A stretch of DNA of 32,000 nt from Candidatus Saccharimonadota bacterium. Its GTDB lineage: Bacteria; Bacteroidota; Bacteroidia; Flavobacteriales; Blattabacteriaceae. A program made the translations under genes and the position numbers. The notes beneath the pieces were generated by a model that saw only the letters and a program-made list of their open reading frames with translations, had not been told where the DNA came from and made no database searches. Position 1 is the stretch's first letter, and the number at the start of each line of letters is the position of its first letter. Below, one piece after another: positions 5,269-32,000 of the stretch. The stretch is taken from NCBI RefSeq assembly GCF_033372575.1, contig NZ_CP104094.1, positions 52,987-84,986 of the forward strand, written 5' to 3'.

Positions 5269-6525
5269 TTAATTTTTAATATGTTTATAATAATAACCTA
5301 GTTTTTTTAAATCTTTCCAAAAATTATGATAAGATTTATTAACAGTATTAGGATTTTTAATAATTATATTTTTATTTTTATATTTTATAGGTAAAATAGA
5401 AAATGCCATAGCTATTCTATGATCTTTATAAGTTTTTATAATAATATTATTTTTTTTAATATTTATAAATTTTATTATTTCTATAGAATCATTAGTAATA
5501 TAAGTAATAGTTCCAGTTTTTTTTAATTCATTATGTAAAGCTATTAATCTATCAGTTTCTTTAATTTTTAAAGTGTTTAATCCAGTTAATAAACATTTTA
5601 TTTTTAATAAAGAACATGTTAATATAATTGTAGGAGCTATATCAGGAGTAGATTTTAAATTTAAATTAATATATTTAGGAAATTTAAAGTTTTTTTTTTT
5701 TTTAATTATTATACTTTTATTTTTAAATTTAGTATTAATTCCAAAATATTTTTTATATATATTAGCTATTTTACTATCACCTTGTAAACTATTTTTATAA
5801 AATTTTTTTAATTTTAAAGTAATATTTTTTAAAAATGTAATTATAGAATAAAAATAAGATGCTGAACTCCAATCAGATTCTATATAATATTTTATATTAT
5901 TTTTAATATTTTTAATATTTTTTATATATATAATGTTATTTTTTAATTTTAATTTTATTTTTAATTTTTTTAAAATTTTTATAGTCATATTAATATACGA
6001 AAATGAAGTTTTATTATTTTTTAAAATTATTTTTAATCCTTTTTTTAATTTTGGACCTATTAAAATTAAAGAAGTAATATACTGACTACTAATATTTGAA
6101 TTAATACTAATTTCATTTTTATTTAATTTTTTTCCAATTATTTTGATTGGTGGATAACCTATTTTTTCAATATATTTTATATTTGCTCCTAATTTATTTA
6201 AAGCATCAACAAGATGAAAAATAGGTCTATTTTTCATTCTTTTTGTACCAGTTAAAATAACATTTTTATTATTTTGTATTGCGAAATAAGATATTAAAAA
6301 TCTCATTACTGTTCCAGCATCTTTAATATTAATTATTTTTTTATTTGATTTTAAAGAATTAATTAAAATTTTAGTATCTCTAGAATTAGATAAATTAAAT
6401 AATTTAATATTATTAAATAATTTATTAATTATTAATTATCTATTAGATTCACTTTTAGAACCATTAATATTAATATTAATATTTTTATTTTTAGGTTTAT
6501 TATATTTAATTTTTAAATAAATCAT
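5269..6525 (-). pseudogene. aroA: 3-phosphoshikimate 1-carboxyvinyltransferase (EPSP synthase), full-length frame of 418 codons interrupted by one in-frame TAA at 6436-6438 (codon 30)
   Basis: The track ORF 5269-6306 carries these motifs: KRMKNRPIFHLVDALNKLGA, SSQYITSLIL, ESDWSSASYF, LQGDSKI, KIKETDRL, DHRIAMAFS. Manual extension upstream in the same frame gives MIYLKIKYNKPKNKNININING-SKSESNR-*-LIINKLFNNIKLFNLSNSRDTKILINSLKSNKKIINIKDAGTVMRFL. The ATG at 6523-6525 overlaps the mnmG stop as TAATG. Confidence 0.85.
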
Positions 6526-15159: not shown

Positions 15160-16378
15160 AAAAAAATATATTTTAAGTTTAAAAAAAAGAAAATTTAAAA
15201 ATATTAATATAATAAAAGAAATATTATTTTTATATAAAAAACAAAAAAATTATATAATATTATTAGAAAAATATAATAGAATAATAAATAAATATTCAAA
15301 AAATTTTTTTAAAAAAAATAAAATAAAAATAAAATATAAAAAAATATTAAATATAAAAAATAAAAGTAAAAAACTTAAAAATGAATTATTAATAATTAAA
15401 GAAAAAATATTTAATATTAAAATTAAATTACCAAATATTATAAATGAATTATATTTTAAAAAATATAAAAATATTAAAAATAATAAAATTATTTATAAGA
15501 ATAAAAAATATAAATTATATTTAAAAAAAAATAAATTATTATCACATATAGAATTATCTAAAAAATTTGAATTATTTGATACTAATACTGCTAGTAAAAT
15601 AAGTGGTACTGGTTTTGTTATATATTCAGGTATAGGATTAAAATTATATAATTCTTTAGTTAAATATTTGTTATTTATAAATAAAAAAAAAGGTTATAAA
15701 GAATATAAATTACCTTATTTAGTAAATGAACAATCAATATATGGAACTGGACAATATCCAGATAAAAAAAATCAATTATATAATATATTAAAAGATAATT
15801 TATATTTAATACCAACAGGAGAAGTACCATTAATAAATTTATATAAAAATAAAATTTTTAAAATAAATAATTTACCTATAAAAGCTCAAACATATACTAA
15901 TTGTTTTAGAAGAGAAGCTGGATCATATGGTAAAAATGTAAAAGGTTTAAATAGATTACATCAATTTGGAAAAGTAGAAATAATTGAAATTATGGATAAT
16001 AAAAATTCTAATTTAAGATTATTTAAAATGTTAGAACATATAAAATATGTATTAAAAACATTAAAATTATATTTTAGAATAATATTATTATCATGTAATA
16101 ATATAGGATTAACTTCATCAATAACATATGATTTTGAAGTATATTCATTTGGTCAAAAAAAATGGATAGAAGTTAGTTCATTATCTAATTGTTTAGATTA
16201 TCAATCAAATAATTTAAATATATATTATTTAAATAAAAATAATAAAGAATTATGTCATACTTTAAATGGTAGTTGTATATCAATTCCTAGATTATTATTA
16301 ACAATTATAGAAATGTATCAAACAAAAAATAAAATTAAAATACCTAAGGTTTTAATACCATTTTATAAAAATGAATAA
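15128..16378 (+). CDS. serS: Seryl-tRNA synthetase
   Basis: 416 aa. The N-terminus MLTDSLIKEN matches the MLD.K.IREN pattern. Other motifs: TGEVPL, FRREAGSYGKNVKGLNRLHQFGKVE, and NGS.ISIPR. It overlaps the der 3' end by 32 nt. Confidence 0.92.
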   Translation: MLTDSLIKENKKKYILSLKKRKFKNINIIKEILFLYKKQKNYIILLEKYNRIINKYSKNFFKKNKIKIKYKKILNIKNKSKKLKNELLIIKEKIFNIKIKLPNIINELYFKKYKNIKNNKIIYKNKKYKLYLKKNKLLSHIELSKKFELFDTNTASKISGTGFVIYSGIGLKLYNSLVKYLLFINKKKGYKEYKLPYLVNEQSIYGTGQYPDKKNQLYNILKDNLYLIPTGEVPLINLYKNKIFKINNLPIKAQTYTNCFRREAGSYGKNVKGLNRLHQFGKVEIIEIMDNKNSNLRLFKMLEHIKYVLKTLKLYFRIILLSCNNIGLTSSITYDFEVYSFGQKKWIEVSSLSNCLDYQSNNLNIYYLNKNNKELCHTLNGSCISIPRLLLTIIEMYQTKNKIKIPKVLIPFYKNE

Positions 16379-16560
16379 TAATTTTTATGAAATATAAAAT
16401 TTTATTATATAAAAAAAAATTAATAATTATATCTTTTATTTATAAGAAAAATTATAATAAAATAATAAAATTTATAAATAATTTTTGTTTTAATTTGTCA
16501 AAAAAATTAAAACAAAATGTTATAATTTTTTTTAATAAAAAAAATATTTAAAATATAAAT

Positions 16561-16872
16561 AAGTTAATAGTTTTATCGCATTAATGAGAATTAATGAGGA
16601 AAGTCCGGACACTAAAGAGAAATACAAAGGATAACATCCTTACATCGAAAGATGATGAATAGTACAACAGAAAGAAAGTATAATATATTAAATATTATAG
16701 TGAAATCATGGAAACTCTGTATAGTGAAATGTTAAATATCCATAGATTGTCTCGATTATTATGGATGGTAAACAGATATGATATATATGGTAACATATAT
16801 ACTAGATAAATGATAAAAATATATTATTTAAAATAAAATAATATATACAGAATCCGGCTTATATATTAACTT
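16561..16872 (+). ncRNA. rnpB: RNase P RNA (bacterial type A, reduced)
   Basis: Conserved blocks GAGGAAAGTCCGGAC (16595-16610 region) and ACAGAATCCGGCTTA near the 3' end. The terminal P1 pairing is AAGTTAATA (16561-16569) with TATTAACTT (16864-16872). It forms a GC-richer island. Confidence 0.88.
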
Positions 16873-16888
16873 AAATAATAAAAAAAAA

Positions 16889-17773
16889 ATGCATATTCAT
16901 AATATGTTAATAAAAAAAATATTAGAAATATTAAAAAAAAATAAAGAAGAAAAAAAAATAAAAGAAGAAATAAAAAAAAAGATTAATTTAAAAAAAATAA
17001 ATAGAAAAAAAATAATAAAAATAAAAAATAAAATAATAGAAATAAAAGAAAAAAAAATTTATAAAAATTATAAAAAAAAAGAAGGAAAATTAGTACGTTT
17101 AAAAGTAATAAATGTATATAATAATAAATTAATATTAACAGATAAAAATAATAATGAATTAATATTTAATAAAGATAATAATTATGATAGACAATATAAA
17201 GAGATAAAAGATATAAAAGATAAAGATATAAAAGAAAATAATTTTTTTAAAAAAAATAATTACTATTATTTTTTAGTAGAAAAAATATTTTTAAATAAAA
17301 ATAAAAAAAAAATAATAATCTTAAAAAGAAATAATAGTTTATTTGTAAAACTATTATTTAAAAAAGAAATATTAGAAATTAAAGATAATATAGTAAAAAT
17401 AAAAAAAATAGTAAGAATATCAGGTATAAAAACTATTATAGTAGTTTATTCAAAAAATAAAAATATAAATGCTGTAGGATGTTGTATAGGAATAAAAAAT
17501 ATAAGATTAAATAATATAAAAAAAGAATTAAATAATGAAATAATTGAAATATATAAATATAATAGTAATAAATTAGAATATATTAATGAGATATTTAAAA
17601 GAAAAAATATAAAAAAAATAGAAATATTTAAAAAATTAATAATATTATATTTTAATAAAGAAATAATAGGTAAAATAATAGGGAAAAAAGGTTATAATAT
17701 AAAATTATATTCATTATTATTAATGAAAAAAATAATAGTAAAGGAATATGAAGAAAGTAATAGAATTATATAA
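16889..17773 (+). CDS. nusA: Transcription elongation factor NusA (shortened, 294 aa)
   Basis: The S1-like segment is EGKLVRLKVINV. The KH regions are INAVGCCIGIKNIRLNNIKKELNNEIIEIYKYN and GKIIGKKGYNIKL. It lies directly upstream of infB, as in the canonical nusA-infB arrangement. Confidence 0.8.
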   Translation: MHIHNMLIKKILEILKKNKEEKKIKEEIKKKINLKKINRKKIIKIKNKIIEIKEKKIYKNYKKKEGKLVRLKVINVYNNKLILTDKNNNELIFNKDNNYDRQYKEIKDIKDKDIKENNFFKKNNYYYFLVEKIFLNKNKKKIIILKRNNSLFVKLLFKKEILEIKDNIVKIKKIVRISGIKTIIVVYSKNKNINAVGCCIGIKNIRLNNIKKELNNEIIEIYKYNSNKLEYINEIFKRKNIKKIEIFKKLIILYFNKEIIGKIIGKKGYNIKLYSLLLMKKIIVKEYEESNRII

Positions 17774-19451: not shown

Positions 19452-19493
19452 AATAAATGCATACCTAATAATTTTTAATAAAAATTATTTTTT

Positions 19494-24501: not shown

Positions 24502-25286
24502 TTAATAAATATATAAATTAAAAATAAAACCAATATGATTAATAATATTTAAAACATAATTATTGTTAAATATTAAATATTGGCCTTTTATACCTTTTAA
24601 TTTAAGAGTAATATTTTTAATTTTATTTAATTTTATTATTTTAATAATTTTTGGATATTTAATAATTGGATAGTTAAAATAAAATATTTTATTATTATTA
24701 ATAATGTATTTATAATAATTAGTTTTAATTAAAATATTAATAATTTTTTTTTTAATTTTTAAAATATTAATTTTTTTTTTAAATTTATTAGTTAACATTA
24801 TTCTGAAATTAGTTTTATCCGATATATATTGTTTTACTATTTTTTCTATTACACCAGCTATATATCTATTAGGAGTATAAGCAATTATAATAGCTTTAAT
24901 TGCTCCTTGATCCATTAATCTATTGATAAAATTTGATTTTATAGTTACACCTATTTTAAAATTACTTGTAAATGATAAATAAACTATATGTTTTTTAAAT
25001 TCGAAATTATTAATTTTATTATTATTATTTGATGAACATAAAATAGGATTAAATATTTTAATATTAAATATTTTGATAAAATAACAGTTTTTACAATATC
25101 CATTTCTAAAAATATTTTTTTTTTACATAATAAACAATTATTATTTAAAAATTTAAATATAAAATATTTATTAATATAATTATTTAATAATAATAATTTA
25201 TTATTTATGTTTAAATAATATAATAAAGTATAATTATATTTTATTAATAATTTATCTAAAATTATAATTTTTTTAAATTTTAACAT
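24502..25286 (-). pseudogene. DUF2797-family protein, split by a frameshift within an A10 tract (plus-strand T-run 25115-25124)
   Basis: The two track ORFs (24502-24915 and 24984-25298) plus my manual extension of the downstream frame give ...FKFLNNNCLLCKKK / (K)KNIFRNGYCKNCYF...FKIGVTIKSNFINRLMDQGAIKAIIIAYTPNRYIAGVIEKIVKQYISDKTNFRIML...LKGIKGQYLIFNNNYVLNI. This matches my recollection of DUF2797 (C.NC...GFCKSCFF...VKVGVTR...RWIDQGA...PNRYLAG..E...SDKT.WR.ML...GIKGQYLIF). The likely start is the ATG at 25284-25286, because the track's TTG start lies inside tRNA-Asn. Confidence 0.8.
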
Positions 25287-25290
25287 AATA

Positions 25291-25363
25291 CTCCTCAAGC
25301 TGGATTCGAACCAGCTACCTTCTGATTAACAGTCAGATGCTCTACCTGATGAGCTATTGAGGA
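25291..25363 (-). tRNA. tRNA-Asn (anticodon GUU)
   Basis: The reverse complement is TCCTCAATAGCTCATCAGGTAGAGCATCTGACTGTTAATCAGAAGGTAGCTGGTTCGAATCCAGCTTGAGGAG. The anticodon loop is CT-GTT-AA. Confidence 0.9.
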
Positions 25364-25407
25364 AAATTAATTTAATAATATATTAATAATATATTAAAAA
25401 TATAATA

Positions 25408-31807: not shown

Positions 31808-31924
31808 TTGGATTTGGATATTTAAATAAAAATATATATAATATTAATAAGAATAAATTTGTTAATTGAAAATTAATAAGTTAAAAATAAAATATTAGAA
31901 ATTTTATTATTTCTAATATTTAAT

Positions 31925-32000
31925 TATAAAGAGTTTGATCCTGGCTCAGGATAAACGCTAGCGATTAGCTTTACACATGCAAGTCGAGGGGTAATATAGA
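31925..32000 (+). rRNA. rrs: 16S rRNA, 5' end (partial, continues past the window)
   Basis: AAAGAGTTTGATCCTGGCTCAGGATAAACGCTAGCGATTAGCTTTACACATGCAAGTCGAGGGG. This contains the universal 27F region plus a Bacteroidota-type GAT.AACGCTAGCG. The exact 5' end is uncertain by a few nt. Confidence 0.9.

Follow-up and report, generated by a model that had tools for sequence, protein, structure and literature searches.

Conserved frameshifts in poly(A) tracts have been described in the insect endosymbionts Blochmannia and Buchnera, in which 12–50% of the transcripts are corrected (PMC3017870; PMC5009743). Bacterial RNA polymerases slip on A or T runs of at least nine nucleotides (nt) (PMC5009743), and the transcription errors found in such runs of Buchnera are mostly +1 insertions, which rise exponentially with run length (PMC5574713). 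Here we analyzed a stretch of DNA of 32 kb (hereafter the window, to whose whole length all coordinates refer unless a sister locus is named) and focused on a gene of the DUF2797 family on its minus strand, which is interrupted at a run of ten adenines (A10) and is predicted to need recoding at this tract. The nearest proteins are those of Candidatus Shikimatogenerans bostrichidophilus, with the AroA protein P0121 (345 aa) being 100% and the DUF2797 protein P0001 99% identical. The window comes from this organism, a beetle endosymbiont of the Bacteroidota with a genome of 157 kb; the window has a GC content of about 14%, and its genes are mainly translation-related, together with nine tRNA or tmRNA genes.

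The zero frame of the DUF2797 gene opens at the ATG 25286..25284, reads MLKFKK...FLNNNCLLCKKK and reaches the tract as NNNCLLCKKK. The minus-strand context of the tract is ...TTA TTA TGT AAAAAAAAAA TATTTTTAGAAATGGATATTGT, and the minus strand from 25127 to 25101 reads TGT AAAAAAAAAA TATTTTTAGAAATGG, in which the A run is exactly ten at 25124..25115 (T10 on the plus strand). The upstream segment (25116..25286, minus strand) comprises 57 zero-frame codons, from the ATG to TGT (25127..25125) plus AAA AAA AAA; the beta-rich N-terminal part of the protein and the first CxxC (C51, C54) are encoded there. Past the tract, the zero frame reads on through unrelated sequence (IFLEMDIVKTV...LKNI; 24984..25115, minus strand) and stops at 24986..24984. 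Read in the frame one base back, the sequence gives (N)IFRNGYCKNCYF...MDQGA...PNRYIAG...SDKTNF...GIKGQYLIF...LYIY and also, given more fully, NIFRNGYCKNCYF...RLMDQGAI...TPNRYIAG...SDKTNF...LKGIKGQYLIF; this downstream segment (24502..25115, minus strand) has 204 codons, with the codon phase set from ATT 25113..25111, and ends at the TAA 24504..24502. Its part between the tract and Met125 includes the peptides HIVYLSFTSNFK, IGVTIK and IFNPILCSSNNNNK. One added A (A11) joins both frames into a 261-aa protein, the junction of which reads ...CLLCKKKNIFRNGYCK..., and the A10 tract (25115..25124, minus strand) is accordingly proposed as the recoding site, where the frames would be joined either by one additional A in the transcript or by the ribosome stepping back one base. 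A tRNA-Asn (GTT) gene (25290..25364, minus strand) lies directly upstream; as a conserved left neighbor found in all 12 loci compared below, it was used as the anchor for the locus comparison.

That a single A restores the alignment of an otherwise recognizable DUF2797 gene was the central claim of the original prediction, and it was borne out by family comparisons. The restored 261-aa protein matches Pfam PF10977 (DUF2797) with an E-value of 1.4e-51 and 176 bits (cut-off 25) over profile positions 7–225 of 227, while the 137-aa open reading frame (ORF) from MDQGA covers positions 96–225 only (E 3.2e-31), and the 100-aa zero-frame product has no Pfam match. The restored protein is collinear with 39 homologues, the alignment being undisturbed across the junction, and it has the family residue in each of the 32 columns that are invariant in the 40-sequence alignment, of which it is itself a member; the invariant residues Y23, N35 and C54 are encoded upstream of the tract. 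Its membership of PF10977 was supported by the score, the full-domain coverage, the CxxC...CxxC arrangement and the DQGA and GIKGQYLIF motifs. In addition, the AlphaFold2 model of the restored protein has a mean pLDDT of 90.3 and a pTM of 0.85, with the upstream-encoded residues above 90 (91–97 for residues 1–50).

We then compared the locus in the window with those of 11 other Shikimatogenerans genomes, for which host codes were taken from Supplementary Table 2 of PMC10284843. The assembly coverage ranged from 17x (LBRU) to 1159x (PNIT) and was mostly above 50x, and the SANA locus was taken from an independent Logan assembly. DUF2797 was found frame-broken in ten of the 12 genomes. Seven are broken at the A10 site of the window (hereafter the first site), namely the window itself, Strain C, TIMP, DMIN, LCAV, LBRU and ESQU, so that the one-base deficit recurs in six genomes besides the window; three more, PNIT (A13), CTRU (A9) and SANA (A10), have their break in another A tract close to codon 18 (the second site); and only RDOM and LAFR are fully intact. 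To describe the first site, the spacer from the last Cys codon of the first CxxC to the Gly codon of G-[YFH]-C was measured. It is 27 nt in the genomes in frame at this site (RDOM, LAFR, PNIT, CTRU and SANA), and in the broken ones it is 23 nt in the window (TGT-A10-TAT5), Strain C (TGT-A12-T5), TIMP and DMIN (both TCT-A12-T5), 26 nt in ESQU (TAT-A10-TCAAAT5), and 29 nt in LCAV (TGT-AAT-A15-T5) and LBRU (A5TATA6GA5TTA4GAA). All seven first-site spacers are therefore 2 mod 3, and all ten broken copies need one additional nucleotide. The lesion is conserved, or else recurrent.

A neighbor-joining tree of the 12 taxa was built from 612 complete columns of GlnS, TrmD, GltX and the C-terminal part of DUF2797, with the U32 peptidase omitted since its gene is not in the RDOM locus. 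The tree has one group of PNIT, CTRU and SANA (bootstrap support 90%) and another of the remaining nine genomes (100%), a split matching the two main host clades of PMC10284843. PNIT, CTRU and SANA are about 60% identical in housekeeping proteins, and as their clade holds all second-site breaks, the second-site break is a shared character of one clade. The first-site break occurs in seven of the nine genomes of its own clade, from which we infer that one ancestral first-site event followed by two reversions (three steps) would be more parsimonious than five gains. The break appears to have persisted while the host beetle family diversified.

Every sequencing platform is prone to errors in long A runs, and all broken copies need +1, which is the direction of under-calling; a sequencing or assembly homopolymer error, with a true tract of A11, had thus to be weighed. 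The window holds 100 A or T runs of at least 9 nt, and 58 runs of at least 10 nt (up to 17) lie inside long ORFs, nearly all of them as sense-strand poly(A). Among these 58 tracts, only the A10 of DUF2797 breaks a frame, while the other 57, including runs of 13–17 nt, are in frame. Further A10 tracts that are in frame lie in the same gene, for example at 24744..24753 and 24771..24780. An A10 tract is therefore ordinary in this window, and only its frame break stands out. No other frame change in the window was found by tblastn against the sister genomes after identity and E-value filtering, and where the window and the sister loci overlap, no gene other than DUF2797 is frame-broken. Similarly, when 18 kb were aligned with Strain C (CP104096), the indels of other genes were multiples of three and kept the frame, and an indel pair at the end of infB sums to 24 nt and keeps the frame as well; only the Strain C mnmE departs from this, through a poly(A) expansion of 100 nt. 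An assembly rich in homopolymer errors would not be expected to show such a pattern. The tract region itself is equally long in both strains, A10-T-A-T5 in the window and A12-T5 in Strain C differing by a substitution, which indicates that the out-of-frame state is older than their split. Moreover, the deficit is repeated in independent assemblies from different hosts with differing tract sequences; short tracts are also affected, such as A9 in CTRU and A10 in ESQU and SANA, at coverages of 55x–1159x; and an A10 is read in frame at the first site in LAFR and SANA. With the out-of-frame spacing recurring in six other independently assembled genomes, the lesion is regarded as real, and an error of base calling is extremely improbable.

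NCBI annotates the gene as a 186-aa "DUF2797 domain-containing protein" with an ATT start codon located past the tract, and the public annotation thereby conceals the frameshift; the genome paper of the symbiont group does not contain the words frameshift, slippage, homopolymer or pseudogene. The annotated proteins of the three closest genomes (P0001–P0003; 185–188 aa) all start past the tract, and gene callers gave products of 194–212 aa in other genomes, which would suit a gene in two pieces, with the downstream part translated alone by internal initiation and the upstream fragment being dispensable or a separate chain. Inspection of the downstream frame speaks strongly against this. In all seven first-site-broken genomes it opens only 7–9 codons before the conserved Gly (7 in the window), being closed just upstream because the xxT-AAA junction makes a TAA there, and at least 69 codons pass without an ATG, GTG or TTG. 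A canonical start first appears in the window at codon 69 (ATG at 24915). The second CxxC and the HIVYL...KIGVT block, which are encoded by this startless stretch, belong to the most strongly conserved portions of the family. Lacking a canonical start, this segment could be reached only by a frame change in the tract or by non-canonical, genome-variable initiation, and indeed the annotated starts vary between genomes and fall at non-canonical codons. A split would also part the two CxxC knuckles of one zinc ribbon, and the upstream part is itself under selection (dN/dS, the ratio of nonsynonymous to synonymous substitution rates, of 0.21) and keeps Y23, N35 and C54. Independent translation of the downstream part is thus very unlikely. 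A dual-coding system of the dnaX type was also considered and rejected: the zero-frame tail has 44 residues in the window, 15–16 in Strain C, TIMP, ESQU, DMIN and LCAV, and 6 in LBRU, so its length is not conserved, and nothing suggests a second functional product. The arrangement looks like rescue rather than dual coding.

Next, the selection acting on the gene was evaluated between the window and Strain C, which share the lesion. The dN/dS was 0.21 for the 57 upstream and 0.10 for the 203 downstream codons of DUF2797, compared with 0.08 for the U32 peptidase, 0.24 for trmD, 0.30 for glnS and 0.32 for gltX. In a neutral simulation, in which the observed numbers of substitutions were placed at random under the genome base composition, amino-acid differences as few as those observed were rare (N part, P = 1e-4; C part, P < 5e-5), and stop-free sequences on the window–Strain C branch arose with P = 0.06 and P = 0.006, respectively. 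When 38 invariant residues were defined on 37 free-living family members, 33–36 of them were kept in the seven restored broken genes examined and 33–34 in the two intact symbiont genes, and no second lesion was found in any of the ten broken copies. Both halves of the DUF2797 gene are thus, by these sequence measures, under purifying selection. The low dN/dS, the single lesion per copy and the retained invariant residues are not those of a decaying pseudogene. In this respect the original prediction, which had considered such conservation unexpected for an old pseudogene and had named a homopolymer sequencing error as its refutation, was upheld on both counts, and the comparison of the tract among relatives that it had suggested revealed the recurrence described above.

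A more recent loss has to be distinguished from an old one, in which selection would be relaxed throughout the clade and the gene inactivated in parallel by homopolymer indels. Such indels are the commonest mutation in these genomes; ten of the 12 genomes are broken, at two different sites; trmD, gltX, mnmE, infB and tsaD are split in sister genomes, and aroA of the same window carries a nonsense codon; and with weakly supported internal nodes of the tree, several independent events are possible. These points are opposed by the dN/dS of 0.10–0.21 between two strains that both carry the lesion, by the lack of a second lesion in ten broken copies even though about 11% of random codons would be stops, and by the stop-free probability of 0.006 for the C part on the window–Strain C branch alone. 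The invariant residues are retained as well as in the intact copies, the ten lesions are all of one sign, and the second-site break is common to a clade (90% support) in which housekeeping proteins share only about 60% identity. Gene loss under way is therefore considered improbable.

By standard decoding, the gene would give a 57-residue N-terminal fragment with an unrelated tail. In the mechanism proposed here, RNA polymerase would slip backwards on the T10 template and add one A, and the resulting A11 mRNA would be translated into the full-length 261-residue protein, with a possible contribution from the ribosome slipping by −1 on this A run. With moderate confidence, we favor the reading that the DUF2797 gene is functional, that its DNA is truly one base short in the A10 tract, and that full-length protein is made via slippage, most likely by the polymerase; we infer that slippage occurs, that the polymerase is its main agent, and that sufficient protein results. 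The +1 bias of the transcription errors of Buchnera (PMC5574713) matches the uniform +1 need of the ten broken genes.

The ribosome could, on the other hand, correct a real lesion in a functional gene by itself, through a −1 slip of tRNA-Lys on A_AAA_AAA or through poly(A) sliding. After such a slip it would read AAT ATT TTT AGA..., giving exactly the same protein. Thus, while the original prediction had rightly noted that the tract has the geometry for polymerase slippage, this geometry does not single out the polymerase, as it fits the −1 slip equally well. The zero frame AAA AAA AAA of the window conforms to X_XXY_YYZ, and that of LBRU, ATA AAA AAG, contains the classic dnaX-type heptamer A_AAA_AAG, at which a −1 shift would leave a 10-residue Cys-to-Gly spacer, as in the intact LAFR protein. 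Endosymbionts may also retain indels that are offset by frameshifting, according to a review (PMC5009743). However, the LBRU case is one assembly at 17x, and of the features of programmed −1 frameshifting only the slippery heptamer was found (in the window and LBRU), with no stimulatory element: the 80-nt folds downstream of the tract in five genomes gave z-scores of −1.64 to +1.00 against shuffled sequences, indicating no stimulatory structure, and the structures were not conserved among these genomes. Shifting without a stimulator is usually inefficient. By eye, no Shine-Dalgarno-like element was seen just upstream of the tract, although no motif scan was run; Bacteroidota largely do without Shine-Dalgarno use. 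Correction by the ribosome as the principal agent is hence regarded as rather unlikely. We rank polymerase slippage first, as the most likely agent, and the ribosomal slip second, an order that sequence alone cannot decide. A change of the genetic code was rejected, all other ORFs being intact under table 11.

Five observations count against functional rescue by polymerase slippage. First, a CirSeq study of Buchnera saw no frame-restoring transcription error (PMC5574713). Second, the LBRU tract, A6GA5, is too short for efficient polymerase slippage, its assembly having a coverage of only 17x. Third, the synonymous divergence (dS) of DUF2797 between the window (24502..25286) and Strain C (L001, 10003..10776) is 0.36–0.40, against 0.15–0.19 for four neighbors. 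Fourth, DUF2797 is the most often broken gene of its neighborhood, which could also mean weak selection. Fifth, the internal nodes of the tree have 3–60% support, so that a single ancient origin and repeated origins are inseparable.

The function of DUF2797 was searched for as well. With the DUF2797 protein as query, neither the NCBIfam search nor a PDB sequence-profile search returned a match, Foldseek of the model against PDB gave nothing below E = 2, and Pfam up to an E-value of 10 gave DUF2797 plus weak zinc-finger noise only, with no match to the GIY-YIG clan. The best BFVD matches to the model were weak (E 0.009–0.5), several of them being GIY-YIG or T5orf172 proteins, and the HIVYL...KVGVTR...R...E motifs resemble GIY-YIG in agreement with these matches, which is a lead and not a result. 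A further and distinctly doubtful idea is that the out-of-frame register is itself selected: the slippage signal would set a low dose of DUF2797, possibly a GIY-YIG-like protein harmful in excess, and would have been kept over about 100 million years of bostrichid-symbiont diversification and re-created at a second tract in one clade. As sense runs as long as A47 to A71 are tolerated in essential genes of these genomes, slippage of polymerase or ribosome may, on this reading, be a routine and required step of expression.

Slippage-mediated rescue of DUF2797 would mean that homopolymer frameshifts maintained by selection are not confined to gammaproteobacterial symbionts but occur also in the Bacteroidota, in a genome near the lower limit of size and GC content. 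What is new here is the phylum, the extreme genome (157 kb, 14% GC) and the depth of the series, with ten of 12 genomes broken at two clade-specific sites and with one sign. Since the annotation conceals the lesion, gene inventories of these symbionts may misjudge which genes work. With about 100 A or T runs of at least 9 nt per 32 kb, the locus is a natural test of slippage-delivered expression and of polymerase versus ribosome, and DUF2797, being retained under selection in a 157-kb genome, is worth characterizing.

Other lesions and features were observed in the window. The gene of EPSP synthase, aroA (6525..5269, minus strand), a signature shikimate-pathway gene of the symbiont, carries an in-frame TAA at 6436..6438 right after the conserved GSKSESNR; the position is Leu in four orthologues (SNRLL), the frame is the same on both sides, and a single-base change from TTA to TAA would fit. 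The NCBI AroA (P0121) has 345 aa from Met74 and is devoid of the N-terminal 73 residues, which include GSKS and part of the DAGTVMR block. Among the top matches, none was an AroA of the 160-kb and 152-kb sister strains. A bacterial RNase P RNA gene of class A (rnpB; 16560..16877, plus strand; Rfam 129.5 bits) accounts for the GC-richer, ORF-free stretch between serS and nusA. The nusA ORF (16889..17773, plus strand; 294 aa) matched KH_5 alone in Pfam, which gave no NusA_N or S1 domain, and an A10 run (16880..16889) immediately precedes its start. A 16S rRNA gene starts within the window at 31923..32000.

Between the RNase P RNA gene and nusA, a greA gene is present in Strain C (L001, 19207..19674), TIMP (L002) and RDOM (L004), the Strain C product having 155 aa with matches to both the N- and C-domain of Pfam GreA_GreB. 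In the window, a segment of about 460 nt with greA is deleted at 16878..16888, between rnpB and nusA, and no greA was found in the 32 kb by tblastn. It is a speculative possibility that loss of the transcript-cleavage and fidelity factor GreA might alter the behavior of the polymerase at A tracts.

Among the sister genomes, sense runs with an apparent frame change were seen in mnmE of Strain C (L001, 13568..13692; A47, A27 and A18), infB of TIMP (L002, 18204..18327; A71 and A26) and tsaD of TIMP (L002, 4733..4781; A18), and RDOM has a T118 run outside any long ORF (L004, 16582..16699). Run lengths this extreme are unreliable in Illumina assemblies, but runs of this kind imply that long poly-Lys stretches are inserted and that slippage is unavoidable. 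In PNIT, both gltX and mnmE are split; glnS of LCAV is broken up into three pieces; and trmD is split in LBRU and in ESQU, in the latter at CCC with no long homopolymer (coordinates of the split genes in the sister loci: L005, 4919..4960 and 6040..6440; L007, 4225..4235; L008, 3755..4448; L011, 3984..5803). Finally, Strain C has an insert of about 650 nt (564 + 84; L001, about 15800..16620, minus strand) that is not in the window at the corresponding position between infB and the RNase E/G gene (19452..19493). Within the insert lie a GC-rich GCTGCAGCT repeat that is unusual for the genome and an ORF (about 164 aa) whose product carries INKK/NIKK repeats, ends in an acidic C-terminus and has no Pfam match.

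When the DUF2797 locus is set against the described systems, the Buchnera and Blochmannia type (Tamas 2008 and Wernegreen 2010, as summarized in PMC3017870 and PMC5009743) is matched in the host being an AT-rich obligate insect endosymbiont, in the single 1-nt indel within a sense poly(A) of at least 9 nt in an otherwise intact ORF, in a frameshift that is common to diverged lineages without decay, and in hints that the tract underwent independent events or reversions. That type also has a mixed mRNA pool containing frame-restoring tract lengths and yields full-length protein, for which selection on the roughly 69 codons lacking a start of their own is indirect support at the present locus. 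The locus differs in that the symbiont belongs to the Bacteroidota and not the Gammaproteobacteria, with a smaller and AT-richer genome (157 kb, about 14% GC), in the spread over ten of 12 genomes and two clade-specific tracts of one gene, and in that slippage is here proposed from sequence data. In phase-variable contingency genes, too, the length of a coding homopolymer sets the frame and flips over evolution, as RDOM and LAFR are in frame here, but phase variation does not fit, because this symbiont is intracellular and vertically inherited, has no obvious on–off use for such a switch, and the off register appears fixed in its clades. The dnaX of E. coli shares the zero-frame slippery Lys heptamer of the A_AAA_AAG type and the −1 direction, also seen in poly(A) sliding, with the exact heptamer occurring in LBRU; unlike E. 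coli dnaX, the present gene has no detected downstream hairpin or pseudoknot and no sign of two products. In Thermus thermophilus dnaX (A9) and in bacterial insertion sequence (IS) elements (PMC5009743), an A run of at least 9 nt likewise gives access to the other frame at a conserved site; there, however, two useful products are made in a set ratio, whereas the unshifted tail of DUF2797 is non-conserved and varies from 6 to 44 residues.

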